Source of the DNA: Rhizophagus irregularis
Lineage: Eukaryota
Direction of reading: 5' to 3'
NCBI RefSeq assembly: GCF_026210795.1
Contig: NC_089430.1
Span: 930,001 to 994,000 of the forward strand
Length of the DNA: 64,000 nt
Each line of letters begins with the position of its first letter. Within the stretch, counting starts at the first letter, position 1. Positions 14,408-55,867 of the stretch are shown in pieces. A program made the translations under genes and the position numbers. A model generated the notes under the pieces. The model saw nothing but the letters and a program-made list of their open reading frames with translations. It did no database searches and had not been told where the DNA came from.

Positions 14408-14429
14408 TCAATTTCAAAATTCAAATTGT

Positions 14430-14733: not shown

Positions 14734-14735
14734 CT

Positions 14736-15845: not shown

Positions 15846-17629
15846 ATTTGATATACTTTAATGCGGCAAGTTATACTTTGTCGAAATTTGCAGTAAAATC
15901 GAAAATATATTGTTATTATAGCAATATCACTTCGATTAATACAAAATTGTTACTTTTCAACTTTCGCTAAAATTTACAGTTTCTTTTGATAAAGTTTGTT
16001 TGGCATCCGAAAATGATAAAGGAATAATAAAGTGATTATCTTGTAAATAAAAGTTATTTTAAAATAAAATAAGCTTTTTATTTTAAAAATAAGCTTTTTA
16101 TTGTAAAATAAGCTTAAATCATATTGCAATTTTTAAAAGTATATTAATTAGAAAATTCGCAAATTTATTATATAAAATTGCCAAATTTGCGAAAAAAAAA
16201 TATTAAATCCTAAAAAATTATTGAAATAATCATAGAAGCCAGGATTACATTAATTATACATACAAATTATACAAATTTTGTGTTATTCCAAATTTTATAA
16301 AAATCGGCCTTTTAACAAATTTGGATTTTGCCAAACTTATTAAACTTATTCAAACACTAAACAAATGAGCAGAAAAAGGTCAGTCTCTAGTATACTTGAA
16401 GATCTTGATGATGAAGAATCACCTTCAAATTAGCCATCTTCTACTCGTAGAAATAGATCAATTTCTGGTATAATAAACGAAGAAATAGTATCTTCTGCTA
16501 GACCAACAAGTAATAAAAGAAAACTAGTAGTTTGTAATTATCCTGATTGTGATGGCAACTTGGTGGATTCTCGCACAAAAGAAATTCACGATTCTAGACA
16601 TCAAGAATACCAAGATTCACAAGGTACAATTTCGTCTCAAGTTCGTCAACTTGAAATAGGTGAAACATCAATACCCGCTTCAGCTGGACGAATGATTGAT
16701 GAATCTATTAGACAAGAATCGGAAGAATCAGATAACAGTAATCAAGATGATGTTGATGATGAACATCAAGATGTCGAATTTAACTTCTTACCTCAACAAT
16801 ATGCAAGAAAGTATACAAATCGTCCAGAAATTTCAGAAGATCCAGAAGATTTATCATCATCCGAATATACTACAGAGGAAGATATCTACAGTGATACATT
16901 GTCTATAGGCAGTGAATCAGATAATGATCCAATTTCTGGAATTTCTGAAATTTTTGAAGACTATTCACCACCTAGTTATGAACCATTTCAAAACCCACCA
17001 TATTTAGAATCGAATTATGATCGATTTTTATGGATTTTACTTTGGATAATGAACTTTCGAACAAGATTCAATATCGCAGAGACAGCTACTGAGACTCTAA
17101 TAAAATTTATGAAATTGGCCCTGTGCAAGTTCAGTAGTGACGATTTTAATGATTTCCCAGATTCACTTTACTTAACAAGAAAGAAGCTTGGATTAAACGA
17201 CCAATTTCATAGTTTTGTACCTTGTCCGAAATGTCACAAATTGTATAAAAAAAGGAAGTGGTAGATTTCAAACAAGAGGACAATCCTGCTATAATGAAAT
17301 GTCAACACATAAAATTTCCCAATTCTTCAGTTCGCAGATCACGTCTTTGCAATACGGCATTGTCTGAAAAAATTAGCGCATCGACAAATCGAACAATAAT
17401 ACGCCACAGGTCGAACAGATGTCATTGTTGCAAAATTTGCCTGGAATTTTTCTGGCAAATTGAAAATTATCCCGGTGAATTAGGGTAAATTGTGTTACAA
17501 TTTTGGGATAATGGAGGTCTTACAATTTGGCAAATTTTGTCAAAATGGCGGAATTCCTACAGAATTCCTAATTCAAATGTTGAGAAATTTTTCAGTATAT
17601 TATCATTAAATTGTGGGAAATTTTAGGCA

Positions 17630-18480
17630 AATCTTTAGTAATGATATGCAAATGAAGTGCAAATTGTGGTGAATTTAGTTAAATTTTTAGTAATTTTATG
17701 CAAACGTAATGTAAATTGTGGTGAATTTAGTCAAATTTTTAGTAATATTATGTAAACGAAGTGCAAATTGTAGTGAATTTAGTTAAATTTTTAGTAATTT
17801 TATACAAACATAATGTAAATTGTGGTGAATTTTAGGCAAATTTTTAGTAATTTTATGCAAACGTAATGCAAATTGTGGTGAATTTAGTCAAATTTTTAGT
17901 AATTTTATGTAAACGTAATGCAAATTGTGGTGAATTTAGTCAAATTTTTAGTAATGTTATGTAAACGAAGTGCAAATTGTGGTGAATTTAGTCAAATTTT
18001 TAGTAATTTTATGTAAACGAAGTGCAAATTGTGGTGAATTTAGTCAAATTTTTAGTAATGTTATGTAAACGAAGTGCAAATTATGGTGAATTTAGTCAAA
18101 TTTTTAGTAATGTTATGTAAACGAAGTGCAAATTGTGGTGAATTTTGTTAAATTTTTAGTAATGTTATGTAAACGAAGTGAAAATTGTGGTGAATTTTGT
18201 TAAATTTTTAGTAATGTTATGTAAACATAATGCAAATTGTGGTGAATTTAGTTAAATTTTTAGTAATTTTATGTAAACGTAATGCAAATTGTGGTGAATT
18301 TAGTTAAATTTTTAGTAAATTTATGCAAATGTAATGCAAATTGTGGTGAATTTAGTCAAATTTTTAGAAATGTTATGTAAACGAAGTGCAAATTGTGGTG
18401 AATTTAGTTAAATTTTTAGTAATTTTATGCAAACGTAATGCAAATTGTGGTGAATTTAGGTAAATTTTTAGTAATGACGC
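17630..18480. repeat. 43-bp subterminal tandem repeat of element C
   Basis: About 19 units gcaaattgtggtgaatttagtcaaatttttagtaattttatgtaaacg. Confidence 0.9.
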
Positions 18481-18559
18481 CAAATTTACCAAATTTGAAA
18501 TAAAAATTGTCAAAAATATTACATATATTTTGATATTTATTATATAATCCATTAATATC

Positions 18560-20998
18560 CCTACATATTCTTCCTACACCCTTACTGTTCTTTTTCTTTT
18601 TCTTTTAAGGTTCTCTTAGGAACATTATCATGAATATGTTCCTGTTTTTGGGACGATGGTTTGGATGATAATTTTTTATTTGTTTTTTTCGATTGATCAC
18701 GTATGTTGTCAATAACTTCCTGCAATTCATCAAGTGCTTCGTTGTTTTTGTTTGTGGATTTTTTATTTTTTGAAATTCTTTTTGATGATCGTGTTTGTTG
18801 AGAAGTTTTCCGTGATGATGGGGGTTTTTGCAGTGGTAATGGTGGGGTTTTAGAGGATTGTTTAGATCATTTGTTTGATCGTCGTCCCGATGTCTGTGAT
18901 AATGGCGTTTCCTCTTGCTCCAGCTCGTTTATCTCATCCTCACCCTCTTCTTCTTCATCAGATTCAGCATTTATATCTAATTTATCGACATTGAGACCTT
19001 AAAAGAAAAATTTAAAAAATTTTCTAAAAAATTCCGTTTCATAAAAAAAAAAAGAGAACGGTAATACTCAATTACCATAACTTTGTTTACTTTGTTGACT
19101 TTGTTCCTCCTCTTCGCTCTCTGATTCCGACTCATCATCTGATTCTTCATCAATAGATTTATGGACTGAGGGAGATTCTCGCTTTTCGTCTTTAAGTGTC
19201 CACCAAATTAAATTTGGTGGTGCTTTCTTATTTTTCCAAAATTCATCTTTAAGGATACGAAGACGTACTCTCTTATTTTCTGGAAAATATTTTTCTACGT
19301 ACTCGTCAATTGAATGTAGAAGGTTCGTTAACTAAAAATAAACGTGTATTAGAAATAGATAAACTTCTGTTGTTTTTGAGGTTTGGCATTTTTCTAAAAT
19401 TCGAAAGCATGCAAAGAAATTGATATGCTGAGATTTGGCGAAACTAGAAGCACCAATCACGTATTGATAAAGACATTTTAGTGTTACTGCGCATAAACAA
19501 AATGAATTGTCTGACTTACTTCATCAGATCTCCATGATAATTTGTAAACAAAAAGGTTTTTGTGGTCTGTGGATGCGTTTGGATCATTCTCCAGATCACT
19601 TTATTCAGGAGAGTGGTATTCGTTCTTGTTTATTATTTCATTAATATCCTTGATCCCGCGTTTTTTAAAAGATTTTCGATAATCGAGGTGATTTTTCATG
19701 GCTAATGCGCCCTTCATCCTTCGTTCTCGTTTCTGAAATTAAAATAACTATTAGTAATTTTCAATATTACCTAAAAATTTGGAACTTGATTAACTTACTT
19801 TCTGATAAACGGTTGATTATATGGCTCATTATTTTTTTTTGTTTTATTTCTGCCTCATTAAGCTGGCTTTCTTTCCATTTACGTTGGCCATTTTTATGCA
19901 AATCTGAGAACACATCCCAAACTATACTTAATGTTGCATGAATACCACGTTGTTCAAGAAGTGATTGGATACGGGGAATCAGATCCTTTTCCAATTGTGG
20001 TGCAATCTCGCCAAACTTCTTTGTATAATTGATGGGAATTTCATCAATTTTTGCGCTACAAATTAGAATTTTAATTTCGTTCTATAAAATGAAAATTGAT
20101 AAAATTAATGAGTTTAAACGTCACATAAATAATAAAAATATACCAAAACAAACTTTTATTTCTTTTCGATGCTTTTTATTATATTGTTTTTGTAATGTCT
20201 CTTGCAACGAATGTAGATCTTTTTCAGGGATATATTCCTCATTGTCTTGTTTATCAAGTTCATCTTCGTCATCGTCATCATCAACCTGAATATATTCTAT
20301 TTGTCGATTTTGTCGTGAACGTTCTTGTGAGTTCAGAGAACGCTCTAGCATTCTCGTTATTTGCCCGAACCCAGTGGACATTTGTTCTTGAATTGACGAC
20401 ATTCCCCGTTCAAGTCGTAAAATACGTTCTTAATGTACAAAAAAATAGTAATTTTTAAATTAAGTTTGCTATTTAATCAAAATTTTGAATGATCTGCCAA
20501 ATTATCCGTCAAAACGTAAATTATACCTTCAGTATTCAGACTTGATGACCTATTTAATCGATTACGATTGTGTATTTTACTGGTAAAAAAATGATTTATC
20601 CTACACATATCTTACACATATTGGGTACTCAAAATGTAGAAAATCATACACAAATAATACACATATCATACACATATCGGGTACTAATATATATATCATA
20701 CATATATCAGGTACCTGATAGGTATACTATATATATAAGTACCCGATATGTGTATGATATGTGTATTATTTGTGTATGATTTTCTACATTTTGAGTACCT
20801 GATATATGTAAAATATGTGTAGGATATGTGTAGGATAGACCATTTTTTTACCAGTGTTTGGTCGATGGATTCGGCTGAATTTAAGTGTGATAAAGAGTGA
20901 ACTGTCTGAATGCCTTGTCCATCATGAGAAGCGTCGATGAATAAAGGAGAATGTAGTGTACGAGTACGACGTGTTAACGAACTTCTTTTTTTGGTCAT
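18560..20998 (-). pseudogene. Multi-exon second (TnpA-like accessory) gene of element C, interrupted by a MITE; 3' end approximate
   Basis: ATG at 20998 (MTKKRSS), exonic ORFs 20121-20402 and 19767-19994; NKNEYHSPE...LSWRSDE near 19520-19630, homologous to the element A gene. Confidence 0.6.
20578..20856. mobile_element. 279-bp CACTG MITE, copy 1
   Basis: Near-palindromic (t)actggtaaaaaaatg...cattttttaccagtg; 3-bp TSD ttt. Confidence 0.92.
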
Positions 20999-22119
20999 TA
21001 TCAGAAAAGAAATGAAGTAAAAGCTAGAAATGTGGAAGGAACGAATGTAAAATTGAAGAAACGTAAAGTAAAAAAAGAGTTGAGTAAAAAAAAAATTAGA
21101 AAGTAACAAAAATAAAATAATTTGAAAATTGTAAAGACGATTTTAATGTAAAGGAACAAAAATTGCAAAATCGACGTTTGTATTGTAAAAAAAAAAATCA
21201 CTCTTTATATATTTATTCCAATTAAATGTTTTCTTCGCGTAATTGTTGAAATAATTTAATAATTTTTGAATTGTTCTATTTTGGTCATTGCTGATTTTGG
21301 AAAGTAGTTAAATAGTTAAATGATTTGAATTGTTCTATTTTGGTCATCACTAATTTTGGAATTAGTTAGCCAATCGCTAAGTATATTAAGAATATAATTA
21401 AAAATAATTTGGTATTTAATATATAAATTTAGTCAAACAAGGTTACGAGGAGTATACTGAAAGTTAAATTTATTGTTATTGCTGATATATTTAAGTATAT
21501 AATTAAGAATAATTTGGCTATAAAAAGTTAAACAAGGAGTATACTGAAAGTTAAATTTTATTGTAGATCTGTTAAAATGTAACATATTCACTTTCGATTA
21601 TGTATTGATCTACAATTGATGTATTGATGTTCGAAAAAAATATACAATTGATGTATTGAAACTCGAAAAAAAATAAAAATGTATATACAATTGATGTATT
21701 GATGTTCGAAAAAAATAAAAATGTATCGTCTGATTATTTATTACAGCGAAATGCTGGTATTTTGGTTAAATTCACATTTTGTAAAATTAAATCAAAATTT
21801 GAAAAAATGATGAATGTTAATGAAAGACGCGTTAAAACAAGAACTAAAAAAAAATGTTATTGTAATAAATGCAACAGAAAGTATGTTGATCCAAGAACCA
21901 AACAAAAACATTCAATGAGTCTAAGTCTTGATGATGCAACTACTTCAAATGACCCAATGAGTATTGGATCATCATTCGTTAATGAAGAAATCTCTATCGA
22001 CCCTCAAGAAAGCACATCAACATCAGAAAATTTGTCAACATTTTCTTCGAAAAGGAGAAAACGAAGCAGGTATAATACTTATTTGGAGCGTGACACTCAA
22101 ATGCAAAATATAAATGACA

Positions 22120-22310
22120 GTGATGATAACAATGACAGTAACGAAGAAACTGATAATTATGGTGATAGCGATGATGGGGATGATAGTGATGATAACGATG
22201 ATGGGGATGATGGGGATGATAACGATGATGGGGATGATAGCGATGATGGGGATGATAACGATGATGGGGATAATAGCGATAATGGGAATGATGGGGATGA
22301 TGATGGCGAA
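22120..22310 (+). repeat. Coding minisatellite (gatgataacgatgatggg)n giving a poly-Asp tract
   Basis: Directly visible 9/18-bp units. Confidence 0.9.
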
Positions 22311-22447
22311 GAAACCAACATTTTTGAAGATTACTCTCGACCGAATTATGATTTTCCAAACAATATTAATGAAAATCTGCAAAATATTGAAGATTGGATA
22401 ATTGTGTTTATTTTGAGGTATCAAACTAGATTTCGGCTAGCAGATAC

Positions 22448-22726
22448 CACTGGTAAAAAAATGGTCTATTCTACACATATCCTACACATATCTTATATAT
22501 ATCGGGTACTCAAAATGTAGAAAATCATACACAAATAATACACATATCATATACATATCGGGTACTTATATATATAGTATACCTATCAGGTACCTGATAT
22601 ATGTATGATATATATATTAGTACCCGATATGTGTATGATATGTGTATTATTTGTGTATGATTTTCTACATTTTGAGTACCCAATATGTGTAAGATATGTG
22701 TAGGATAAATCATTTTTTTACCAGTG
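22448..22726. mobile_element. 279-bp CACTG MITE, copy 2 (opposite orientation to copy 1)
   Basis: Same sequence; flanked by a 4-bp duplication atac; its removal restores ...RLADTAIDTLIKF. Confidence 0.92.
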
Positions 22727-25499
22727 ATACCGCAATCGATACATTAATTAAATTCATCAAACATATTTTAACAAATTTTAATTACGATCGTTTTAAAGAT
22801 TTTCCTATTTCGTTGTATACTGCAAAAAAGAAATTAGGATTGAAGCATCAATTTGTCAAATTTTCCGTATGTCCTTCATGTCACAAATTACATAATATAG
22901 ATGATGTTAAACAACACACAATCCAACAACACAAAGCAATAAAAAAATGTGGTCATGTACAATTTCCAAATCATCGTTTACTTCGACAATGCAATGCTCC
23001 ATTATCAGAACAAAAAGAACTAGACGATGGTAAAGTCGTTAATGCACCATTATTAATTTATCCGATGCCCAGTATAAAAGAGCAACTTTTACAAATGTAT
23101 CAAAGGCCAAACTTTGAAAAAAATCTTAAATTATGGGCCGATAGAAGCGTCAACGACCGAGTCTTATGTGATGTATATGATGGTGAAATTTGGAAGAATT
23201 TCTCAAATAGTGGAATAATAGTGGATGATGAATCTGACAAACAAAGATTTTTAATAAAGAACATGCGGATGATCATTTGGGTATTATGATTAACGTCGAT
23301 TGGTTTCAGCCATTTGAAAGGACAATTCATAGTTCTGGTGCTATATATGGAGCTATTTGCAATATCCCAAGAGAATTGCGCTTTAAACCTGAAAATATGC
23401 TCATTTTAGGATTAATGCCAGGCCCTAATGAACCAAGCTTACATCAGATAAATCATTACTTGGCGCCAATTGTTGATCAATTTCAAACTTTTTGGGAAGG
23501 AGTGGGATTAGACAGAACTTCTGAACATTTATCCGGAAGATTGATAAAATGCGCAGTAATTGCTTGTTGCTGCGATATACCAGCTGCTAGAAAATTATGT
23601 GGCCATTATTCAGCCAATGTAAGCTGTCACAGATGCTTAAAGGTTGCAAGAAATAGAAATTTTAGTGGCATGGATGATATTGACGAATGGTTTGTTGCTA
23701 AAAGCGCGAATAGTCATCGAAAAATGGCTTTGGAATGGAGAAAATGTAAAAGCAACGAAGCTAGAAAAAGACATGTGAAGCAATATCACGCGAGATGGTC
23801 AGAAATGCTCCATTTGTCTTATTTTGATCCGATACGATTTTTACCTGTGGACCCGATGCATAATTTATTTATAGGAATTGCATCATTTATCGTAAAACGG
23901 CTTTGGTTAAGACATGGTAAAATAAATATGGATGATCTGACGAAAATTCAAAAAAACATGAACAATATTCATCCACCATCAGAAATCGGTCAAATTCCTC
24001 ATAAAATAGATATTGGGGAAGGATTTTTTAATTTAACGGCTAACGAATGGAAAAATTTTTTCCTGATTTATGCCAGAGTCGTTCTTTGGGATTTTTTGGA
24101 CCAAGTAGATCGGAAAATCTTAGTACATTTCAGCCAAGCTTGTTCTATATTAGTCCGAAGGATTGTTACAATCAAAAATTTAGATGACGCACATGAACAT
24201 TTAATTGAAATTTTGAAACTTATCGAAACGAATTACGGAGAAGTTTCAATAACACCAAATTTACATCTTTCATTACACTTGAACAAATGTTGTAAAGATT
24301 ACGGTCCTTTTTACTTATTTTGGTGTTTCTCCTTTAAAAGGATGAATGGAATTTTTGGTTGGTATTTACAATAATATTATTCAAATTATTCAGAATTATT
24401 ACTTACGATTTTACAATTATACAGGGAGTTTACCTAATAGTAGACGAAAAATTGAACCGGAAATTATGCGATTTATGATGCAGAGTTCTCAAATTGAACG
24501 AAGATTCAATACATTGGCTCTAAATCATCAGGCCATTTTTCAAATACTTGATTTAAATGATGATACAACTGACGATAATGAAAATGAATCTCTCGAAAGT
24601 GAGGAATTACAGGCATTTTTAGACATATCCGAAAAGCTGGTTTCTAGCGGGGCAATAGGAACGGAGGAATATCCTGAAGAACTTTTAAGTCCGATAAAAT
24701 TGAATGTCATATTACCGGATGATATTTTGGATTTACTAGTTGATTACTACAATCGCGCTTATGAAGAATATAATTTTAGCTGACCACGGTTAGATCCTTC
24801 TTCATCAACCAAAAATTACATTGCTGTAACTGGAAATATCACACAATGTGGCAGATTGCGAATCGGTGCAGAATATTTTGGGTCAATATTATCCAAAAGG
24901 TATATTAGAAGCTCTTATATTTTAGCACATTTTATAGAACAACGTGGAAATGATATAGACACATATCCCGGCCAGGTACAATTCTATTTCAAACATACAG
25001 TTCATCTTCCGAATGGTCCGACAGAACATTATTTGGCTTTTGTGAATTGGTATAAACCCGCTGCGACCGCAAACATCAGATTTTTTTTTCCAGCGAAGAT
25101 TCTGATGATTTTACGAATGATCCGGAACTTTGGAAAAAGGAGTTTTTTAATTCTTCAGTTGATAGTATAATTCCGGTTCATCACATATTAGGTAGATTTG
25201 TTCCAGCAAAATTTAAATACAAACGTACTGAATACTTGGCCATTTTACCGTTAAATAGAAGATTTCACATTTAAATTTACCATAATAAATAATTTTTTTT
25301 TTTGCGAAATTATCCGATTATTATATCAAATTATTCAATATTCAGTAAATAATGTCGCATTTTTTTAGTAAATGATCTAATTTTTCGATAAAATGTTACA
25401 TCTTTCTAGAAAATGTCAACAAATGTACATTTTGCAAAAAAAGTGTCGAAAAAAAATAACATTCTAACGAAAAATGTAACATTTGACCAAAAAAACATG

Positions 25500-26110
25500 A
25501 AATTTGCATGAAATTTGCTAAAAAATGCGGAATTTTCATAAAAAATGTACCATTTGGCAGAAAATCGGAATATTTGACAAAAAAAAAGCAAAATTTGATT
25601 TTAATTGACAATGTTATAACAATGTTATAAAATGTTGTTACAATGATATTACATTGGTGGCAAAATGTGGAATTTTTATAAAAAATGTACCATTTGGCAG
25701 AAAATCGGAATATTTGACAAAAAAAAAAGCAAAATTTGATTTTAATTGACAATGTTATAACAATGTTATAAAATGTTGTTACAATGATATTACATTGGTG
25801 GCAAAATGTGGAATTTTCATAAAAATGTACCATTTGGCAGAAAATCGGAATATTTGACAAAAAAAAAAGCAAAATTTGATTTTAATTGACAATGTTATAA
25901 CAATGTTATGAAATGTTGTTACAATGATATTACATTGGTGGCAAAATGCGGAATTTTCATAAAAATGCACCATTTGACAAAAAAAAAGCAAAATTTGATT
26001 TAATTGACAATGTTATAACAATGTTACGAAATGTTACATTTGAGGTGTAATGTAGCATTTTTCTAAAATTTCATAAGATTTGCTAAATCGGACAATGTTG
26101 TAACAATGCT
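25500..26110. repeat. Subterminal tandem repeat of about 121 bp in element C
   Basis: About 4 units aaaaatgtaccatttggcagaaaatcggaatatttgacaaaaaaaaagcaaaatttgat... Confidence 0.9.
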
Positions 26111-26694
26111 ATTCCAAAAAATTGCTCAGCATAATGTAGCATTTTTCACAATTTCCCACCATTTTCCAGAAAAATGGGGAATTTGCATTTTTTAAATTTT
26201 GGACAATGGTGCCCTTCGACGACCTAATTTAATGTATCCATTTGCTGGAATCAATCAACAACTTGCCACTATGTTTTGTCAGCCTGGGTTTGAAAATTCT
26301 CTCCGACATTGGGCTAATCGGTCAAATTTTGATAATATTTTGACCGATATATATGATGGGCAAGTGTGGAAGAATTTCAAAAAATCGGACAATGAAGATT
26401 CGCCAAATTTTTTCAGAAGCGAAGTGGCTGATTCTCATCTTAGCTTGATGCTGAATCTTGATTGGTTTCAGCTATATGATAGTACCATTTATAGTATCAG
26501 TGTCATATACACCGCTATATGCAATTTGCCACGCAATATCTGATTTAGACGTGAAAATTTATTGACTCTCGGCATTTTACCTGGGCCAAAGGAGGTCAGC
26601 CTACATAAAGTGAACTACTATTTAGCACCAATAGTTAACGAATTGGAAACACTCTGAGCTGGGTTAACACTAAATCGTACTTATGAATGCGAAA

Positions 26695-36059: not shown

Positions 36060-39000
36060 TATACAAAATAATTATCAATTTTACTATTAGCTAGCATTTT
36101 CCAATATCTGTATTTAAACGATATATTAATGTTTTTAATGAAAAGAAAGCAATATATAATAAAACTTATATAATATTCTTTTTAAATAATTATTATATTT
36201 TTTTAATAAATTATAATAAACTTTTTTTATAAACTTTTTAATTTTTCTTAATAAACATTTTAATTTTTTTTAATAAGCTTTTTAATTTTTTTTAATTTTT
36301 TTTGTTAATTTTTTTATTAAATTTTCAATTATACAAAATAATTATTACTGATTTAATTAATAACTCAATATTTGTATTTAAGTGATATATTAAACATATT
36401 TTTAATGAAAAGAAAACAATATATAATAAACTTATTTAATATTCTTTTTAATAAAATTTTTTAATAAATATTCTTTTTAATAAATATTCTTTTCTTTTTA
36501 ATAAATTGTTTTAATAAATATTCTTTTTTTTATAAATTAAAATTAATATAAATTTGAAAATCATAAAATAAGCATATCTTAATCTGTTTTATAAGTTTAT
36601 TTAAAGAAAAAAAATAGTTTTTAAATACTATTTTTAACTTTATATTTAAACAAAGATTTTGCTAATTATATCCAAAAATAGAAAAACAAAAAATAAAAAT
36701 TTAAATAAATTGAAAATGGCATTTAAAACCTCATTTTGTATTTTAAGTAAACTTATAGAGCAGATTAAAATAGTACATTTAATATATATGTTTAAGAGAT
36801 TGTATTATTTTATATATATGGTGAAAATTTTATTTAGAAAAAAATGTTTTTTTGAAATTATATAATTTACTTCTACTTTAGACATTCTTCAAAAAGGAAA
36901 GTGTAATGCATTATATATGTAATGAATAAATTTACTTATAATAAAATAATATAAAAAGGATATTAAAGGCAAATATTGGAAAGACTTATTGGAAAAAATA
37001 TAAAAAATTTATTAAAAAAAAATTTTATTAATTTGCATTTTAGGTAAAATTATCTAAAATAAAATTTAGCAGTTAAACAATTGTTAAAATTTAGCCTACA
37101 ACATTACTACTAGCTAATAATAAATAATAACAGATTAATTATTGAAAATAAAAAATAGAAAGTATAATGTCTGTAATAAATAGCTTTTTTAGTATTATTA
37201 CAAAATTTTTCTTATATAATTATAGCAAAAATTTATCTCCTTATACTTTAAATACTCTTCACATTTCCATTTTTATAAGTATTCTAAAAACAGAATTTTT
37301 TCAGTAATTAAAATCTATTTATTATGATCTTATTTATCATATGGTTCATAATGCTAGCCAAAAAATCATGAAAAAAAAATTTTGTAGTAATACTACTAAT
37401 AAATTAAATAAAAATTAAAGAATATAAAAGAATATTAAAAAGAATATTAAAAAAATTATCACACTATAATTAAGCTATAATGCTGGCCGGAATTAAGTGA
37501 TCTCCATATAAATTTCCTTTTTTGGAGTATTTGTGAAACCAAATTTCCAATTTTTTGCGAGAAGTAAATTTCCTTTTTTGGAAATTTGTGTAACGTTACA
37601 TTAATAATTTTCTTAAATCCGCCCAGGATTACTCCAATTTTTGGTAGAAATTAAATATTTCCTTTTTTGAAAATTTGATCACAAGTAACTGTAAAATTAA
37701 TAAAATCAATTATAATTCCGGCCAGAATTACAATCACATGATTTCGGAATTCGGGTAAATAGTTTAGCCACCAGATTTGTTAAAAAAATATTTTTAAACA
37801 AAATTTCCGTATAAGGAGATTATAATTCTGGCTGGCACTATAAATTAAATATTGTGCGACGTAGATCCCTTACATAAAAGGAAAATTTCCTTAAAAGGCG
37901 ATTTTCAAATTCAAAATTTCGAAATTTCGAAATTTCAAAAATCTTAAAAAAATTTCCTTTTATGGTAATTTTTTTTTGAAATTTCGAAATTTTGAAATTT
38001 TGAACTTTTAAAATCGCCTTATAAGGAAATTTTCCTTTTATAGGATAGATCTACGTTACACAAAACGTCCAAAAAAGGAAATTTGGTAATACAAACTTCC
38101 TTATTTGGACATTTGTGTAACGTTACATTGCCATAAAAGGAGATTTTCCTTATAAGGAGAATCTCCTTATAAGGAGATTTTAAAATTCAAAAATTCGAAA
38201 AATCAATTTTTCGAAATTTTGGCACTTTTCATCCAAACGGTACACCGTAAATTACTTCTGCACGTAAAATATACTGCACTTGCTAGCAGTAATACTCTGA
38301 ACAAATTTCAGAGTGTCATGTGTCATTTTTAATGACGTAGTCAAATTCTCTTGTTAGATTCGTTACAGATTTTTATGACGTCTGGTATTCTCATTGTGAA
38401 TTGTTTCGTTAGACGTGATGACTAAGTAGAGTATAGAATTTCCTTGAAAGGCGCTAAAGCATAGTTAGAGAAAATATGTTGCTGGTTATAAATCATAGAC
38501 GATAGGCGATAAAGCAAATCATGAAAGTTAGCCTTAGCACGGAATGCCTGAAGAGTATTCTTTCAGAATGTACTTGTAACAGATGCGTTTCAGTTTATTC
38601 CCAATAAAAATCATATAGTTACGATCTGCAGTATCGTTCATGTGCGTAGTATTATCTGATAAAGTTATCACCTTCAGAACGTAATAAATTTGTTATCCAA
38701 GACTCTAAGTCAGTGAACTACGTAACTCTTTCAATCATTAAAGTCTCTTGTTATACAAAATGCATTTTTAATTTGGTTACCGCTTTTGCTATCAAAATCT
38801 ACTAAAAGAAATTAAGGGATATCATAGAGTAAATTGTCGTGACAATATGGCCAGTTTATAGTGACAAAAATGAAAAATAACCTACGTTGTTATCAAAAAT
38901 GTTACATTTTTTGTAATGCACCCTCACTTTGTATATGCAGGCTATGTCTACGAAGTAAATTTTCAGGTTCGTTTTGGTTAGAACTAATGAAGGTTACTAG

Positions 39001-41879
39001 CTATTTCATATGAATGATGTATTCTCTTCCAAATTTTTTTTCTTTACAAACTTATTATCACAGAGAGTTTCGTTTACTGCTCCAGATTATTTTCTCTACA
39101 AATATTATATCGTTCAGAATATAACCAGGGCTGTGATTCTGCGCAAAACGAAATAATAGGGGTCTAATTATTCTATCCAACCTTCGTATAAGTTTGGAGT
39201 TATACGAAAATGAGGAATATGGTTATTAAGGGTATCGAAAAGAGGTTAAGAGGAACTTCGCATACAAAGTGTAGAAAAAATAGAATCCTGCTAAAGAATA
39301 TAATATCACAGGCCTAGACTATTAACTGGGAATGAGAAGCTTATAACAGAAAGTCATGAAGACTAAAGTTCTGGCTTTCAATCAATCCCATTGAATTTAA
39401 ATATATGTTAACGTTCGTTCTGCGCTTTGTTTGTACTCCTTGTATTCATAAAATTCCACTCATCAAAACGAATTTTGAATTAAATAGCTTCTGTGTTCTA
39501 TTATTATACAGATTAGTTCGCTTGTTTTGATTACATCCATAGTAGACGTATTAGGAAGGCTTGAAACCTACAGGAGCATATTTCATTAATAAATGTCATT
39601 TTTGTTCATATTCACATAAAAATATATTGCAGAAGTACCTTATTCCTCTACACGTAACTCTTTATCTTTTGCTCGATTTATTAGTAATGTTCCGCTATGA
39701 ATCTTTCAAATCTACTTAATATAGTTTAGAGTAATCTTTTACACATATTTTCATTGTTAGAAACAAAACTCGTAACTCTGTTTTTTTAACTTTTTTTCAG
39801 TGCATGTTTTGAAACTGACTCCTTAATCAGAATAATCATCAATTAAAACTGCTGATCCATTATTTTATTGATAATTAGATATGCGCAGTATAAATCTAGA
39901 AGAGTTACACAAAGTTTAATAATTGAGGGCCCTTGTGCGATATATTACGGAAATAAGTTTTAGCTCTTGGTGTCTTACCCTTCTAGATCAAAAAATGTTT
40001 CCTTATGGTATCTAGCATTAATGTGTCTCGACCCTACCGATCATAGTCTGGGTGTAGAAAGACTTTTCTTACACAAAAATATCTCAAACACAAACGATGG
40101 TACTGTGTTGAACAAATCGTGTCCAAACTGTCCAATACATATTATGATGTAAATAATACGTAACAGAAATTTAGTAAAGGAAAAATTCATATGTTATATC
40201 TGATCATGTGACACCATGAATATTTGTTCAGAGTATCAGTCAGAGACTGCCCAAAGGGCACTTGATAACAAGGTCACATGGTGATCTAACATTTTCTCGT
40301 CTACTCTTCAGAGGAACGAAGCTCATCCCTTATTGATTCAAGATTTTTCACACACGGTTAACACAGGTCGAAGGGGCAATATTGTCCAAAATTCAAAAAA
40401 TGCAAATTCCACATTTTTCTGGAAAATGGTGGGAAATTGTGGAAAATGCTGCATTACGCTGAGCAATTTTTTGGAATAGCATTGTTACAACATTGTCCGA
40501 TTTAGCAAATTTTATGAAAATTTGGGAAAATGCTACATTATATCTCAAATGTAACATTTCGTAACATTTCATAACATTGTTATAACATTGTCATTAAAAT
40601 CAAATTTTGCTTTTTTTTTGTCAAATGTTCCAATTTTCTTGCAAATGGTGCATTTTTATGAAAATTCCACATTTTATTTCAAATGTAATAACATTTCATA
40701 AAATTGTTATAACATTGTCAATTAAAATTAAATTTTGCTTTTTTTTTGTCAAATGTTCCAATTTTCTTGCAAATGGTGCATTTTTATGAAAATGCCACAT
40801 TTTATCTTCAATGTGATATCATTGTAACAACATTTCATAAAATTGTTGTAACATTGTCAATTAAAATCAAATTTTGTCAAATATTCCGATTTTCTGGCAA
40901 ATGGTGCATTTTTTTTATGAAAATTCTATATTTTTTGTCAAATGTTGCATATTTTCAGCAAATTTTATGTTTTTTTGGTCAAATGTTTCATTTTCGTCAG
41001 AATGTTAAAATGTTACATTTTTTTTTGAAAAATGCTCAATAATATGGCATTACACTGGAAAATGTAGCATTTCACCAAATTACACTAAAAAGCATCACAA
41101 TTATCACATTTTTTGGAAAATTCCACATTACACTAAAAAATGTAGCAATATACTAGATTATGTAGCATTACACTAAAAAATACCGCAATTACACTAGACG
41201 ATGTAGCATTATACTAAAAAGTACCACAATTATCATATTTTTTAGAAAATTTCGCGTTATACTGGAAAATGTAACATTATGCTAGAAAATGCAAAATTGC
41301 ACTAAAAAACGCGGAATTGCACTAAAAAACACAAAAAAAATACTACAATTACACAGGATAACGTAGCATTACACTTAATTACATTAGATAATTTTTTATT
41401 TATTTGTAAAATTACAGACATTATTAAATTTATAATATTTATATTCTAACGTATTATTTAACATTAAATTCACATTGTTAATATTAACAATGTATCAACA
41501 CGATGTGTTGTTTAATTTATATATACGAAACCTTATTACTGAAGACTCCCTCTTTTTGTCACTATAAACAGGCGGAGGGAGCAGCAATGGCTCTCCCCCT
41601 ATAGGTACTTTATGGCCTCTACCTGTTTACAGAGAAGGGGCTTTTCGTAAAGTTATTAGATAGATATATATATATGTATATATATAAGTATATATATACA
41701 TCTATCAAAAATTATAATAAAAAAAAAAAATTATTTCGGGGAAAAAGCCCCTATTTATATAAATTTTATATCACGTGCATCACGTGATATTACTTAATAA
41801 TTACCGCAGCTTAGCTGCGATATAACGAAAAAAAAAATTAAGCTTTTTTTAGCAAAAGCTTAATTTTTTTCTCTTTTTT

Positions 41880-44540
41880 TTACGGCCTTAACCTTTACTT
41901 CCCTTCTTTCGCCATTTCACCTTCCCTGTTTCTCTCACCTTCCCCTTCCCCCTTTCCCTTTCGTTCTCCCCCTCCCTTTTCGTTCCATTTCCCTTTCCTT
42001 TTCGTTCTCCCCTCCCTTTTCGTTCCATTTCCCTTTCCCTTTCGTTCTTTTCGTTCCATTTCCTTTCCCCTTTCCTTTTTGTTTCCCCCTCCCTTTTTGT
42101 TTCATTTTCCCCTTTCCCCTTTTGTTCTTCCTCCCTTTTCGTCCTTTTCCCTTTCGTTTTCCCCTTTCCCTTTTCGTTCTTCTTTTTCCCTTCCCTTCCC
42201 CTTTTACTGTAAATTAGAAATATTGGAAATTTCCTTTCAGAAAAACAAAAGGGTAAGTTTCGAATTGTTCGATTCGAAACTTTAATATTTTTTTTATTTT
42301 TTAGGAAACGTTTCTAACGTTTCCTATATCTTCTTTATTTGGAATTACATGAGGTAAATTTTATTACACAAAAATTTACAAGAATTCATTGCAAGTTTTT
42401 AATTTTATTTTATTTTATCAAAGGCATTGGATAATATAGCAATAGCAGATAGAGATTTACAACAATGAGAATTAATTGATGCTCTTTTTTTTATAGGTCT
42501 TTTCGCCGTATTCAACTTGGAAAAATGAAACGGTAAGTTTCGAGGCGTTCGCCTCGAAACTTTTTTTAAAAAAATCTTTTATTAGGAAACATTACTAATG
42601 TTTCCAATAATTCTTTTTTTTTGTAGGTTTTTTTGGCGTACTCGACTTAGAAAACGAAATGGTAAGTTTCGAGGTGTTCGCCTCGAAACTTTTTTTCTAA
42701 ATTCTTTTTAGGAAACATACTGACGTTTCCTTTCTTTTTTTTTTATAGATTTTTCGGTGGTTTGACTTTGGGAAACGAGAAACCGAAAGGTAAGTTTCGA
42801 AGCATTTCGCTTCGAAACTTTTTTTTAAAAAAAAAATTTTTTAATTTTTTGTAAGGAAACGTTTCTAAGTTTCCTTTTCCTTTTTCTTTTTGTAGGAACG
42901 CCGGACGTTTGGATAATGTATTTCGAAACGAACGGTAAGTTTTGCAACGAATCGTTGTGAAACTTAATTAATTATTTTTTTTTTTTATTAAAAGAAACGA
43001 TTAACTAACGTTTCTTTCTTTTACTTTTGTAGGTTCCGGACGTTTGGATAATAAATTTTGAAACGAGCCGGTAAGTTTCGCAACATGTGTTGCGAAACTT
43101 TATTTTATTAATTTTTTTTTAAAGAAACGATACTAACATTTCTTTTTTTTTCCTTTTTTTAGATTCCGGACGTTTGGATGATGAATTTCGAAACGAACCG
43201 GTAAGTTTCGCAACATTGTGTTGCGAAACTTTATTTTATTAATTTTTTTTTTAAAGAAACGATACTAACGTTTCTTTTTTCCTTTTTTAGATTCCGGACG
43301 TTTGGATGATGAATTTCAAAATGAACTGGTAAGTTTCGCAACATTGTGTTGCGAAACTTTATTTTATTAATTTTTTTTTTTAAAGAAACGATACTAACGT
43401 TTCTTTTTTCCTTTTTTTAGATTCCGGACGTTTGGATGATGGAATTCGAAACGAACTGGTAAGTTTCGCAACATTGTGTTGCGAAACTTTATTTTTATTT
43501 ATTTTTTTTAAGAAACGTTAACTAATGTTTCTTTTCTTATTTTTGTAGGAACGCCGGACGAAATTTTTGGGCGAAAGGTAATATTTTCGTTTTTTTTGTT
43601 AATAATTTTTTTCTACGAAACGTTAACTAACGTTTCAGTTTTTTTTTATAGATCCATGGCTTCGCCTCCAGGACGAGATTTCGAAGGTAAATATTTACCT
43701 TCGAATCAATTTTGTTTTTTTTTTGTTTAACGAAACGTTAGTAAATGTTTACTAACGTTTCGTTTATCTTTATTTTTGTAGTTTATTTTCCGGTCGCCTT
43801 CTGTACGGAAGAATTTTGAAGGTAAATATAAGAACCTTCGAAGTTTATTTGTTTTATTTACAATGAAATGTTTACTAACTTTCGGTTTTCATTTTTTAGG
43901 TTCCAGGATGCCGTTTCAACATTTCAAAGGTATTAGAACTTCGAAATTATTGGATTTTTGTTATGTAACGAAACATTGTTTAAAGTTTCGTTTATTTATT
44001 TATTTTTTTTGTAGGTTAAAGGAACGGAAAAATGAAAGGGAAAGGTGAAGACGAAAGGGGAAAGAGAAAGGGGAAAGAGAAAGGGAAAACCGAAATGGAG
44101 TGGAACATTTCGAAGGTATACTTCGAAATGTTTGTTATACCTTCGAAATGTTTTTTTTTTTTAGGTTTGGACATACCGGAATTCAATATTTTGAAGGTAT
44201 ATTATACTTCGAAATATCTTTTATTTTGATTTTTTTCAACGAAACATATATTAACGTTTCGTTTTTTTTCTTTTTTTAGGTTCGGCGGTCCTTGTATGGA
44301 ATTTAACATTTCAAAGGTATATAACTTCGAAATGTTTTTTATTTTGATTTTTTTCAACGAAACGTATATTAATGTTTCGTTTTTTTTCTTTTTTAAGTTT
44401 TCACCAGCTTTTACTTCGGCACTGGACATTTGATACATGAATGAATTAGAGGTGTGGATTATCCATAGATCATCGGATATCTGATGAATATAGATCAATA
44501 TAGATTCTCATCGTTAAATAATAATTGTGCATTTGTTAAT
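41880..44540 (+). ncRNA. Putative multi-intron non-coding transcript (about 17 introns, micro-exons mostly 29-41 nt)
   Basis: Donors at 42253, 42354, 42533, 42662, 42790, 42935, 43071, 43201, 43329, 43459, 43578, 43687, 43822, 43930, 44116, 44197 and 44317, mostly followed by CTAAC/CTGAC/TTAAC, poly-T and YAG; transcription not shown. Confidence 0.6.
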
Positions 44541-45246
44541 AAATAATATTGTAATAAATTATGTAAAATTATTAAATCAGTGTTTTAAATTGTCACAGCG
44601 CTTATACTAAATTGTTTAAAATTATTACTAAATTTCACACAATTGTCCAAAATTATTGCAAAATTTCACTAAATTGTCTCCGAAAATGTTGCATTTTATA
44701 CCGTTTACACTCAATTGTCCAAAATCGGTAAAACATTTTCACTCAATTGTCCGAAATTATCCTAAATTTCACTAAATTATTCAAAGATTTAACTAACATT
44801 TACCGAAAATATGCAAAATTCACCACAATTTTCCACAATTTGCATTACGTTTGCACAACATTGCTAAAAATTCGCCTAAATTTTCAACAATTTACATAAC
44901 ATTACTAAAAATACACTACAATTTACCACCATTTGCATTACGTTTGCATAAAATTACTAAAAATTCACTATAATTCACCACAATTTGCATTACGTTTACT
45001 AAAAATTTGACTAAATTTACCACAATTTGCATTATGTTTACATAAAATTACTAAAAATTTGACTAAATTTACTACAATTCGTATTACGTTTACATAAAAT
45101 TACTAAAAATTTGACTAAATTTACCACAATTCGTATTACGTTTACATAAAATTACTAAAAATTTGACTAAATTTACCACAATTCGTATTACGTTTATATA
45201 AAATTACTAAAAATTTGACTAAATTTACTACAATTTGCATTACGTT

Positions 45247-45525
45247 CACTGGTAAAAAAATGATTTATCCTACATATATCTTACACATATTGGGTACTCA
45301 AAATGTAGAAAATCATACACAAATAATACACATATCATACACATATCGGGTACTAATATATATATCATACATATATCAGGTACCTGATAGGTATACTATA
45401 TATATAAGTACCCGATATGTGTATGATATGTGTATTATTTGTGTATGATTTTCTACATTTTGAGTACCTGATATATGTAAGATATGTGTAGGATATGTGT
45501 AGGATAGACCATTTTTTTACCAGTG
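45247..45525. mobile_element. 279-bp CACTG MITE, copy 4
   Basis: 3-bp TSD gtt inside the 43-bp repeat of element D. Confidence 0.92.
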
Positions 45526-47442
45526 GTTTACATAAAATTACTAAAAATTTGCCTAAAATTCACCTCAATTTACATTACGTTTGCATAAAATTACTAAAAA
45601 TTTAACTAAATTCACCACAATTTGCACTTCGTTTGCATATCATTACTAAAAATTTGCCTAAAATTTCCCACAATTTAATGATAATTTACTGAAAAATTTC
45701 TCAACATTTGAATTAGGAATTCTGTAGGAATTCCGCCATTTTGACAAAATTTGCCAAATTGTAAGTCCTCCATTATCCCAAAATTGTAACACAATTTACC
45801 CCAATTTACTGGGATAATTCTCAATTTGCCAGAAAAATTCCAGGCAAATTTTGCGACAATGACATCTGTTTGACCTGTGTAACGGAATTCCACTTAATGA
45901 GTTACCTTGTTCTTTCCCTTCGGATTGTAGTTCAGACATATTTAGTTACAAAGCGTAATGTATGCGGTTGTTAAAAAATGAATATACTCTCTGTTCGGCG
46001 ACTATAATCTATAAGTGGCAAGAAATCTCGATGACCGTCCGTTAAATTTTCTTGGTATAAAGATATTCAACTAATGACACAAAGTACCAAATTGTTATAC
46101 ACAGACAGAACACACGATAAACGGAAAGTAGTAGACTATTTATTCGTAGGCTCTGCTAGATGCAATAAAAATTGTGCTTGTGACCCTATTAACATAATTA
46201 AATTCTGGAGAAAATCTCTCCTGTTGATTTTAGTGCTAATCTATTTATAAAGTATAAAACGGTGACATGTCACATAGTTGCATACTGCTTATGGCATGTT
46301 ACTTCAGAATGATGGTGTGTATACAAAAAATACAACAAAATCAAACAAAGAAAAACCATTAGTATGAAATCAAGTTGCGCAACGTGTTCCATATGGGACT
46401 GATTTCTTCTCGTAGATTTGATACTTCTTGTCATAGAAGTTTTGTCCTTTATAATTTCCTTCGCTTAACTCACGCTTTAGCGCCTTACAGGGGAGCGTGG
46501 TCTGACAAATCCATCCTGCCTTTTGTTTTGCATAGGTGTAGTGTCAGTCCTTCTCATTATAGATTTGTAATACAGTCTCGTGTTTTTTATAGACTTCTGG
46601 TCGTTCAAGTTACAAATTTGTGAGGATAGTGATAAAAACTCGTGAAATTTAGAATCTTAATCGCTAATATGCTAACTGTGTTATATCACGCAATTGTGGA
46701 CACGTTTTTCGTATCCATGCGAGCTAGAAATGATCTAACATGCGGCTATCAACAATGATGCACAAAGATATATCGAAGATATTAATCGATAACACTGCAG
46801 GTTCCTTTGTGTGTTAATTCCTTCAATGAGCTAAACTAGAACAAGAATTCTCAGCTTTTTTTGGAAACAATGATGACATGAGATAAAAATATCCTTGGTT
46901 ATTCATCCGTAACTCAAAACTTCAAACGAATAAAAAGCAAACTGATGTTACATTTGGGCTTAATTCAACTGCATTTATGGTCATTGACGGCAGTAAGTGA
47001 TTCTTTACTAAGCTTATACGGGATCCCGTTTACTAGTAAGAACCCACCAGCTAAGTGAGAGGATGTATGAGTCATTACTTTTCAGTAACGATGACAAAAA
47101 TAATACTACATATATTATACTATACAATAGTTCCATATTAGTTACTATTCCTCGGTAACGACAGAAACATTTTATACAATACCATTACACGGTATGCGAT
47201 GCAGGGTCTACTTGGGTTATTACTTTTCACTACATAATATTCTATACAAGTTATCTCAATAGTTACTTCCTCGGTAATAATAGACTGGAGGTATTACTAC
47301 CTTCGTAATGAAAAATATACAGATATACCGTTGCATAATATATCGGTGCTATCCGTGTTCTGCATAAGTTTTACTCATCAATAACGATATGGAAATTGTT
47401 ACTACATAACAAGTAATGTTCCACACAATGGATACGTTAGTT

Positions 47443-52348: not shown

Positions 52349-55300
52349 CACTGGTCGAATGAAGGGCTACCGGGTAAATTTCATATACCCGATAGCCCTA
52401 TTATATGTTTTCGATTTTAACCTGAATGGCAGCTGATCGATCCACCCGATTTGTGACCGGTTCTCGGCGCAGATCAGGTATAAGTCATGTGACTTTCAGG
52501 TTAGAACATAACGGTAAAGTGCTATATGAATATCGGGAGAATTTCAGCAATCCGATATTTCTCCGAACTATTTATAATATTAGATGTATATTTGCTACAT
52601 CGAAACCCGAAACTTATTATTTATTCATTTATATATACTATATATTATTCATTTATTTATTTATTTAACATAATAACATATATATATATTTATTTTATTT
52701 ATTATATTTTTAAAAATTATTTTTAAAAATTCGTTAATTTATCCTATTCTATCTATCTACATTATGTTGTTAATGGTTTGGAATATTATTCCAGTTGGTT
52801 CGATTCCAACAAACAACTATTTTTCCCAAAGTTTTTATGCCAACTCTTCCGAACTATTGCCTACTAATACCAAACGAATTAAGCAGAAGATGGATATTAG
52901 ATTGTGGTGGATTAGGTTGATTTTGACTTGGTAAAATTGTGAGTGAAATATTATTTCGTTCTCTATAAAAAAAAAGAACGTTTAGTAAACGTTCTTAACG
53001 AAAAATATTAAAAAAAATAAGTTCTGGTACCTTGTGTCAATTTCATCTTGAGCGAATTACCTACAAGAAAACGAAAAAAGTAACGTTAAAAATGTTACAA
53101 AAAAAAATAGAAAAACCCTTCTATTTACCTTTCGTCCAAAGTCCAGTTCGTAATCTTGTCTGGCGTTCCTACTAAAAAAGAAAGAAACGTTAGTACGTTT
53201 CTTTAAAACAATTAAACACCATACACCGCATTATCCCATATACCTAAGTCCAGGTTCTCCCAAATTCCTAGGAGTCCGGTAATCTAAAAAACAAAAAAAG
53301 AAACGTTAATACGTTTCTTTAACATAATTAAACACCAACGCTATACACTTCCCCATATACTTTACCGGGTTCTTCCAAATTCCTAGGAGTCCGGTAACCT
53401 AAAAAAATGAAAAAAAGAAACGTTAATACGTTTCTTTAATACAATTAACGCCATACACTCCTCCCATATATTTTACCGGATTCTTCCAAGTCCGGTAACC
53501 TAAGAAAATGAAAAAAGAAACGTTAGTACGTTTCTTTAACACAATCAAACGTCATACGCCACCCATATATTATACCGAGACTTCCAAGTTCCTAGGAGTC
53601 CGGTAACCTAAAAAAATTGAAAAAAAGAACGTTCGATACGTTTCTTTAACAGCCCCCATATATCTAAATCCGATTTATTGAAAAAAAATATTTAGTTTCG
53701 ACAAAAAAACTTACCGAATTTAAATACCGAGCTCAACAAATCCTACAAAAAAAGAAAAAGAAACGTTAAAACGTTTCTTAATAAAAATAAAGTTTCGTAA
53801 CGATTTTCGTTACGAAACTTACCATTTCGACCTTAGAGTACCGGAGCGGCGGAGCCTACAGATTCTACAAAAAAAATAATAAGAACGTTAGAAACGTTCT
53901 TTGAAAAATAAAAAAAATATTGAAAGTTTGAAACTTACCCTCTCTTAGGCCTTAGCATCCCAGTCCGGTATAAAAGTCGAAGGGAGCCTACAAAAATAAA
54001 TAAAGAAACATTAGTAACGTTTCTTTAAAAAAAAAATAAAAAAAAGAATCGAAGTTTCAAAACGAAACTTCGAAACCTAACCGAAATCCAATATCCAGAG
54101 AGTATCTACAAAAAAAGAAGAAACGTTAATATAACGTTTCTTACAAAAAAAAGAATAAAAAAAGATTGTTTCGCAACGTTTAAACTTACCGTTTCGAAAC
54201 ACCGAGCCGAACACTTGAACCTACAAAAAAGAGAGAAACGTTAATATAACGTTTCTCAAAGAAAAAAATTTTTTAAGTTTCGTAACGTAACTAAACGTCG
54301 CGAAACTCACCGTCATTTCGAATTTCACAAGGCCGAAATACTTGAACCTACAAAAAAAGAGAGAAACGTTAATATAACGTTTCTTACAAAAAAATAAATA
54401 AAAAATAAGTTTCGCGTTGTGAAACTTACCATTCGAGGTTTGCCATTTCGAAGCTCCCCACTTGAACCTACAAAAAAAGAGAGAAACGTCAGAATAACGT
54501 TTCTCAAACTCTCAAAGAAAAAAATTGTAAGTTTCGCAACGCGCTGCGAAACTTACCGTTCGTTTCGTTGAAAAATGAAAAAAGATATTTTGAAGTATAC
54601 TTGAAGTATATCTTCGAAATGTCGAATTTAATTTCGTCCGTCTAAGGAGCCGCCCAAAAGAAACCGAACCTAAAAGAAAAAAAACGAAACGTTAATAAAC
54701 GTTTCGTTGAAAAAAAAACAAAAAAAAATATATTTCGAAGTATACTTCAAGTATACCTTCGAAATGTCGAGTAAGGAGCCGCCCAAAGAAGTCGAACCTA
54801 AAAAAGCAAAAAAAACGAAGCGTTAATAAACGTTTCGTTGAAAAAAAAAACCCAAAAAGAAAGACATTTTGAAGTATATATACCTTCAAAATGTCTTATT
54901 GATTTCCGTCCGTCCAAGAAGCCAAGAAGCCGCCCAAAGAAGCCGAACCTAAAAGAAAAGAAACGAAACGTTAATAAACGTTTCGTTAGTCGAAAAACAA
55001 AAAAATAATTATTTCGAAGTATACTCGAAGTATACCTTCGAAATATCGAGTTCCGTCTCCAAGGAGCTGCCCAGCCGAACCTAAAAAAGCAAAAAAAACG
55101 AAGCGTTAATAAACGTTTCGCTAGTCGAAAAAATAAAAAAATAAATTATTTCGAAGAAGTATACCTTCGAAATGTCAAATTCCGAACCTATACCTTCGGC
55201 GTTCTGGACCTAAAAAATAAAAAAGAATATTAGTGCTAACGTTCATTAAAACAAATAAAAAAAAATTTTTTGCTTACTCCGGAAGACTGGAACTAATTTA

Positions 55301-55867
55301 GATACCGGTATATGTCTTCGGCTTCCTTAAAGTCTCCAAGAGTCCGGCATTTCCTTCAAAAGAAAAGAAGTCCGGAGACTACTAAAGTGAAACTTTTTAA
55401 TCCGTTTCTGCATGTTGCAGATTATATTCCGAACGTTGGACGAGCTTGCCAGAAGTTAGAAATTTGATTTCGAGTTAAATATTTGGTTCTTCAAAAGGTG
55501 TGATAAAAATTTATTTATTTAAAGTATTGTAAGAAAAAAGTTAAAAAAAAATTAACTTTAAAGTGTAAAAAAAAAAAGTTTATCAATTAAAAAAAAGATC
55601 GAAGATTTTTGTGGGAATAGAAATAATTACATGCCGTAAATTATTCCAATGACCTATCAGACTACTGATAGGTATAATAAAATTTTCTGATATTTTAATG
55701 ATATGTCTTTAAAAAATCAGATTTTTTTCATAAAATATTATTAAACATTTCAGATTACCGATACTTGTAAATGTTTAATATTGCCTATCATGCCATATCG
55801 GGTTTCTGATTATTTCCTGATATTTGACCAATACGTTATTACCCGATATTTCATCATTTGACCAGTG
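52349..55867. mobile_element. Non-autonomous CACTA element E (CACTG termini) with intron-array cargo
   Basis: TIR cactggtcgaatga / tcatttgaccagtg; TSD tgc at 52346-52348 and 55868-55870. Confidence 0.92.
52700..55500 (-). ncRNA. Second putative multi-intron non-coding transcript (about 19 introns); ends approximate
   Basis: On the plus strand, recurring cctac/cctaa-A-run-gaaacgtta..cgtttc...cttacc/tatacc, i.e. minus-strand GT...branch...YAG units every 110-150 bp. Confidence 0.6.

Follow-up and report, generated by a model that had tools for sequence, protein, structure and literature searches.

The window analysed in this work is a 64,000-nucleotide stretch of the Rhizophagus irregularis genome that hosts two arrays of short predicted introns with conserved stems, each carried by a non-autonomous CACTA-type transposon (Table 1). 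Array 1 lies in the region 42241-44410 and consists of 16 GT-AG units; its first intron contains an extra donor-like GT at 42354 which, if counted, gives 17 units, in agreement with the initial annotation of about 17 units at 42240..44400. Fourteen of the introns are 74-106 nt long, one is 49 nt and the first is 244 nt. The internal exons measure, in order, 36, 35, 41, 39, 38, 38, 38, 38, 29, 35, 40, 30, 101, 32 and 37 nt, i.e. 29-41 nt plus one of 101 nt, with four consecutive exons of 38 nt. The introns follow U2 spliceosomal order on a single strand: a GT donor, a YTRAY branch point, a pyrimidine tract and YAG. Upstream of the array, the pyrimidine tract has the same layout in one metagenome locus (L011), and motifs like the palindrome and GC-rich motif also occur upstream of arrays in L011 and L027.

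Table 1. Features of the window, in order of position (strand given where assigned).
Feature	Position	Strand	Remarks
Element with GGGTT(C/T)TGTGCTAGG termini	3031-6172		DUF7869 ORF 3865-5712, preceded by two short introns at 3292-3377 and 3428-3496, the latter with a branch-point stem and a weak array-model match (E 0.07)
Gypsy-type retroelement	8549-15842		rve and integrase zinc finger; flanked by long direct repeats, which have tandem arrays of 87-90 nt and of 9 nt inside them
Another Plavaka-like transposase gene	16434-28717		Split by the nested 17405-26220 element; right end probably 29321
Sister element, array 1 family, opposite orientation	17405..26220	-	No array; one terminus truncated
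Divergent spliced second gene in sister element	about 21140-18580	-
Disrupted Transposase_21 gene piece in sister element	23238-24371	+	PF02992, E 3.5e-09
Palindromic 284-nt MITE, CACTG-ended, four copies	20576-20859, 22446-22727, 26693-26976, 45245-45528		97-99% identical; all nested in other CACTA-type elements; weak Rfam miRNA matches below gathering score
Element with long inverted ends	32001-38249		TTTCGAAA-rich ends, with 374 nt arms plus additional ones; pyrimidine tract 34310-34700; acceptor-only run of T-tract plus TAG, 34788-34949 and beyond
TAA target-site duplication of array 1 element	40359-40361 and 45880-45882
Non-autonomous CACTA-type element carrying array 1	40362..45879	+	Termini CACAGGTCGAA / TTTGACCTGTG; CACAG ends
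Left subterminal repeat region	40374..41345	.	128-129 nt period
TCACGTGA palindrome and GC-rich motif	41771..41830	.	Upstream of array 1; possible promoter
Pyrimidine-rich tract	41900..42240	+	Ends at first acceptor AG (42240)
Array 1, introns of units 1-9 (block 42253..43548)	42253-42496, 42533-42626, 42662-42748, 42790-42895, 42935-43032, 43071-43162, 43201-43290, 43329-43420, 43459-43548	+	Exons 35-41 nt
Array 1, introns of units 10-16 (block 43578..44397)	43578-43651, 43687-43781, 43822-43899, 43930-44014, 44116-44164, 44197-44279, 44317-44397	+	Final intron ends AAG
Last exon and AT-rich 3' region	44398..44740	+	Putative transcript 3' end
Right subterminal 52-nt repeats	44745..45879	.	Interrupted by nested palindromic MITE 45245-45528
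hAT element between both arrays	47425-49712		DUF659 and dimerisation domain; one stop between two ORFs; CpG observed/expected 0.52 in ORF
Second non-autonomous CACTA-type element, other family	52349..55867	-	CACTGGTCGAATGA / TCATTTGACCAGTG; CACTG ends; TGC duplication
Array 2	52963..55280 (55280-52963)	-	17 introns modelled and about 3 degenerate units
GC-richer block	58236-63999		Three ORFs, two of them DUF5906/Pox_D5 primase-helicase; similar to a Polinton-like element or an endogenous viral one

An ordinary element of CACTA/Plavaka type serves as the carrier; the initial annotation had likewise proposed CACTA. Short terminal inverted repeats of CAC(T/A) type are present (CACAGGTCGAA/TTTGACCTGTG and CACTGGTCGAA/TTTGACCAGTG), and target-site duplications of 3 bp flank both carriers, TAA at 40362-45879 and TGC at 52349-55867. 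A sister element shares both ends with the array 1 element (85% identical over 581 nt and 96% over 354 nt) and holds the Transposase_21 match; none lies within the array 1 element itself. Array 1 has the position and orientation of the second gene of this sister, and since the transposase-bearing sister carries no array, the array is not required by the family. The carrier of array 2 has different subterminal sequence, and the array 2 units show the same two donor-stem classes together with the branch-point hairpin described below.

Every donor of array 1 sits within a predicted stem. In units 1-9 this is hairpin 1 (AAGTTTCG..CGAAACTT), 12-13 bp long and beginning at intron position +3. The initial annotation had also reported that the stem of later units crosses the exon-intron boundary; this is what we see in units 11-16, which are of the type TTCGAAG/GT..CTTCGAA (the slash marks the boundary), and unit 10 has an exon-intron stem that places the donor GT in the loop. 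The donor is thereby covered by differing sequence solutions: an intronic hairpin, an exon-intron stem or an extended hairpin. A second hairpin lies at the branch point in 15 of the 16 units and is missing from the 49-nt intron; the stems of the array are 12-13 bp and 7-11 bp long. This second stem had been described as enclosing a CTAAC branch point. Its placement at the branch point stands, but CTAAC is not simply enclosed in a loop: in 83 of 96 anchored units the branch A is the base immediately before the 3' arm of this hairpin. It is predicted to be mostly paired (0.71), and only the bases just upstream are single-stranded (0.11-0.28).

The predicted folding of these introns is unusually stable. 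Against dinucleotide shuffles, the median MFE z-score of the array 1 introns is -5.2, with 12/16 below -2, while 17 coding-gene introns, hand-picked from the window and fetched loci, have a median of +0.5 and none below -2. Computed donor occlusion, ignoring pairs that lie within the donor site itself, exceeds the null for 68/77 GTAAGT donors, 6/11 GTGAGT donors and 18/40 other donors; an excess therefore holds for the GTAAGT class only.

Stem covariation between units, another claim of the initial annotation, is found in 16 of 21 stem pairs among 96 distinct units, in an alignment fitted to the covariance model. The inner pairs of hairpin 1 alternate among A-U, U-A, C-G and G-C. In 11 gap-free hairpins 4/4 inner pairs covary with 13 paired cells, values for cells and score that were reached in 0/500 shuffles. 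Furthermore, the inner stems contain 3.1 contiguous pairs, compared with 1.1 for swapped partners (maximum 2.0 in 5000). These randomisations take no account of relatedness among units. On the array strand G-U and A-C are about equal in the invariant cores and number 8 and 3 in the inner stems (p=0.23); as G-U is not significantly above A-C, pairing at the RNA level and at the DNA level is not separated by this count.

A 24-base pattern retrieved 34 metagenome loci, of which 30 are AT-rich arrays and four GC-rich ones (L001, L002, L028 and L033) were dropped as chance matches. The covariance model (R1), built from 11 window introns, gives 204 matches in 51 fetched loci, and 203 of these lie in the 30 array loci, which had themselves been retrieved by the array pattern. 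In prokaryote genomes the 24-base pattern gave four isolated matches, none matched by the model, and a shorter pattern gave 13 single hairpin-1 matches and no array in viral contigs. Six loci have CACAG or CACTG termini, and near-identical array copies occur at several loci; the metagenome loci are short and partly redundant. Copy number and the range of host families are drawn from the window and short contigs. Behind each of the two arrays in L026 stands a repeated end that includes a short hairpin, and L014 looks chimeric, with an ABC-transporter ORF after the array.

Seven loci (L010, L011, L012, L016, L017, L029 and L034) also contain runs of 5-8 units of T-tract plus YAG, which recur at intervals of about 40-60 nt and lack any intervening donor. 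In the two that were read through, L011 and L034, these acceptor-only runs precede the hairpin introns. Their occurrence at seven loci suggests that the common feature is a dense splice signal. The acceptor-only run of the window element at 32001-38249 resembles those of L011 and L034.

The arrays are strongly polarised. The core of hairpin 2 is its own reverse complement, and for 114 distinct cores an acceptor-like tract plus YAG follows in 104 on the array strand and in none on the other; likewise the branch motif abuts the 3' arm 102 times on the array strand and 19 times on the other. This polarity of splice motifs is something that DNA palindromes would not need. At the donor, GT lies ahead of hairpin 1 in 55-58 of 60 cases, a result that is partly built in because the loci were retrieved with that motif.

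The initial annotation had held that splice signals and stems are conserved while exons vary, and the copies agree. Across 12 homologous copy pairs, with each locus used once and non-CpG sites only, GT, branch A and AG differ at 1 of 194 sites and the stem arms at 4/653, compared with 51/878 in exons, 31/615 in linkers and 217/6280 in flanks. The constraint on the stems becomes borderline (p 0.01-0.07) when limited to the 11 pairs of at least 85% identity. L027 was excluded from the polarity, constraint and inner-stem G-U/A-C tests because it overlaps L026. At CpG sites the array exons have changed at 22/152 and the flanks at 52/460; the exons thus decay as fast as the flanks, and nothing here points to protection from methylation.

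Units close together are more alike than units far apart, with exon and intron similarity both dropping with distance along the array. The array has probably grown by local or tandem duplication of exon and intron together. The longest matches of the exons elsewhere in the window are at shuffle level for 13 of 15, and the other two exons are of low complexity. The repeat-spacer logic suggested by the initial annotation, if it implies acquired spacers, is therefore not borne out, and a CRISPR-like array was rejected, the exons being duplicates of their neighbours rather than spacers with outside targets in the window. Two further suggestions fare poorly. The unit is unlikely to be intron-propagating, since what multiplies inside transposons is exon and intron together and the motif is absent from the 17 coding-gene introns checked; nor is the intron mobile by itself between unrelated exons, as an introner would be, exon similarity tracking intron similarity. 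Dicer-type small RNAs from the introns are unlikely because the stems reach just 12-13 bp.

We conclude that the array is a real, repeated and apparently constrained sequence feature that fits none of the families tested. The constraint on splice nucleotides and on the stems that cover them, alongside freely varying exons, suggests that the selected property is engagement of the spliceosome. The acceptor-only runs point in the same direction, and the presence of near-identical copies at several loci suggests that the element benefits. Together these three lines favour a non-coding transcript that loads the spliceosome. Judging from sequence patterns, we regard it as possible, and as the reading to prefer, that such a transcript helps the element to resist silencing.

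Under this reading Pol II transcription would start in the 41.7-41.9 kb region, and U1, SF1 and U2AF would load at 16-20 closely spaced sites. Splicing would be slowed by the 12-13 bp stem over the donor from +3 and by pairing of the branch A. Early spliceosome components might be recruited and held on an element that would resemble an intron-rich host gene. That likeness could confer resistance to silencing by RNAi and DNA methylation. The array would enlarge by tandem duplication of exon and intron, and array-bearing elements would stay accessible to transposase supplied in trans and so spread. The anti-silencing direction is the least supported step. Introns that protect from silencing have a precedent in HUSH (PMC8770142); however, the opposite direction is described in Cryptococcus, where poor splicing triggers silencing (PMC7763443), and we also count against our reading the report that intronless Glomhopper copies of Gigaspora are more highly expressed (PMC13465315). 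The same holds for the lack of a significant G-U excess, for donor occlusion that stays within the null outside GTAAGT donors, for the borderline stem constraint among the pairs of at least 85% identity, for the sister without an array and for the CpG decay of the exons. More tentatively, transposons of mycorrhizal fungi, from several superfamilies, might share one dedicated RNA module, a structure-gated intron polymer that captures the host spliceosome and licenses the element as self. Such a module would counter silencing through RNA only and would be under selection; its conserved code would be the splice sites and gating stems, and its exons would be disposable spacers.

The excised introns could instead be the product: cut out of a non-coding host transcript, they would persist as stable lariats or as linear two-hairpin RNAs of 80-95 nt, in which hairpin 1 sits beside the branch bond while the tail is clamped by hairpin 2. 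This would account for constraint that falls on introns rather than exons and for stem sequences that are nearly invariant, and HSV LAT and ebv-sisRNA-1 are precedents (PMC4378190). We nevertheless consider it unlikely: the exon-intron stems of units 10-16 would be lost on excision, the acceptor-only runs give no such intron, and no Rfam family was matched.

We find it harder to accept that the stems stall the spliceosome in order to feed RdRP and Dicer, making the array a SCANR-like siRNA trigger by which a transposon family limits itself. The predicted occlusion of donor and branch point is what such a trigger would need, the SCANR mechanism is described in Cryptococcus (PMC7763443), and small-RNA loci of R. 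irregularis are reported to be 49% TE-derived and 41% unannotated (PMC8647823); yet near-identical copies at several loci would better fit benefit to the element than self-silencing. Similarly improbable, in our judgement, is that a single structured, introner-like intron has expanded in tandem, neutrally or selfishly and without function, a process in which template switching would produce the compensations and homogenisation the conservation. The greater likeness of nearby units, the lack of a significant G-U excess and the sister element without an array all agree with such an expansion. However, homogenisation would not keep splice nucleotides and stems constant and let adjoining exons and linkers drift. 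Also against it are the several different stems that cover the donor and the persistence of the design across element families with different termini.

Slightly less credible still is a function at the DNA level, with the CpG-containing inverted motifs (GAAACG, AAGTTTCG and TTCGAA) bound by a transposon or chromatin protein and the splice signals as relics. CpG observed/expected is 2.2-2.4 in the arrays and 1.0 in the whole window, antisense hairpin 2 folds as well as the array strand (-7.7 vs -7.4 kcal/mol), TTCGAA recurs in the termini of the 32001-38249 element, and the contig with two arrays, L026, also bears a Tet_JBP dioxygenase ORF (L026:711-2189, minus strand, E 1.7e-09). Against this stand the strict strand polarity of acceptor and branch motifs, the conservation of GT, branch A and AG to the same degree as the stems, and the near absence of the core motifs from subterminal repeats (24/25 occurrences of AAGTTTCG lie inside arrays).

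The remaining alternative concerns coding. A protein search with a read-through frame of array 2 gave four R. irregularis proteins built of near-identical exon peptides, whose gene models (near-identical copies of array 2, with annotated products of 115-147 aa) break at the predicted GT/AG junctions; they omit different exons and read one shared exon in different frames. The breaks speak for our reading, although the gene models are themselves predictions. The proteins have no Pfam match and no usable ESM Atlas match, and searches with the read-through frames of L026 and array 1 gave no match. No gene model backs array 1. We take the locus prefixes of the four models to belong to two published assemblies. 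Gene models of this species have been refined with Nanopore RNA reads (10.1101/2022.10.19.511543). The predicted spliced product of array 1 (607 nt) has 9, 6 and 6 stops in its three frames, and exon length modulo 3 is distributed 42/41/47 across 130 distinct units, so that no conserved ORF is present, in line with the non-coding exons of the initial annotation. Despite the annotated array 2 products, the idea that the transposon carries an ordinary micro-exon gene for a protein is very improbable and largely refuted by these stops, by the lack of a conserved frame, exon phase bias or database match, and by exon divergence at or above the rate of the flanks.

The symbiont genome is described as about half repeats, two-thirds of them unclassified (PMC11075540), and the model R1 can be used to annotate such repeats. 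The arrays further explain one class of spurious orphan gene models among the annotations of R. irregularis. Splicing marks RNA as self in some systems and triggers silencing in others; if expressed, the arrays are a natural many-copy test, in a symbiont, of how RNAi and DNA methylation read splicing efficiency. Our full-text literature search, with most subscription papers outside its scope, found no description of such arrays, nor of any mobile element whose conserved, non-coding array serves to engage the spliceosome.

Non-coding exons combined with conserved intron content are familiar from snoRNA host genes such as GAS5/UHG and from mirtron hosts. The array is set apart from these by its transposon carrier, by stems too short for Dicer and by the lack of Rfam matches and of C/D or H/ACA boxes. 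A snoRNA host gene was rejected because no Rfam snoRNA matched and inspection of the array 1 introns revealed no such boxes, and a mirtron or miRNA hairpin, which would have about 22 bp or more and span the intron ends, because the stems have 12-13 and 7-11 bp and nothing in Rfam matched at gathering score (13 weak matches over 40000-56500, none near it).

The carriers resemble Rhizophagus CACTA/CMC-EnSpm (Plavaka-type) elements as described in PMC11075540, with CAC(A/T)G termini, a 3-bp duplication, subterminal repeats and Transposase_21 in the sister copy, and differ from them in their cargo, a polarised intron array; the word 'intron' is absent from its main text and from that of PMC8647823. 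Like fungal introner-like elements and sister stwintrons (PMC8469720), the array has many similar U2 introns with a predicted stable structure and one functional strand. Those are single insertions in exons of scattered genes, with one long terminal inverted repeat and with donor G, branch A and acceptor G often unpaired, whereas the units here stand in tandem, are multiplied as exon-intron pairs within transposons and place two local stems at the splice signals.

Splicing factors are also engaged by repeated branch-point motifs in the lncRNA Gomafu/MIAT (tandem UACUAAC; PMC3116199). Gomafu is a host lncRNA with exonic repeats, unlike the transposon-borne array. In Cryptococcus SCANR the silencing machinery reads the splicing state, as our reading supposes, but SCANR is a host defence against weak TE introns rather than a conserved TE-borne structure (PMC7763443). 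Further parallels are found among viruses. The EBV W repeats, which give rise to sisRNA-1, are parasite-encoded and pair a short exon with an intron of about 80 nt and a covarying hairpin, and these viral stable introns (EBV sisRNA-1 and HSV LAT) include a hairpin that governs branch-point use (PMC4378190). The W exons, however, are coding and the repeats near-identical, whereas the array exons are non-coding and drifting. Finally, non-coding sequence shields a locus from silencing in HUSH intron protection (PMC8770142) and in Helitron-derived PATCs, which arise from transposon minisatellites (10.64898/2026.08.08.743475). Both are animal systems, and PATCs act via DNA curvature, without splice-site hairpins. 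By analogy, the array may act in the way that introns protect from silencing, or in that of the stable introns of viruses.
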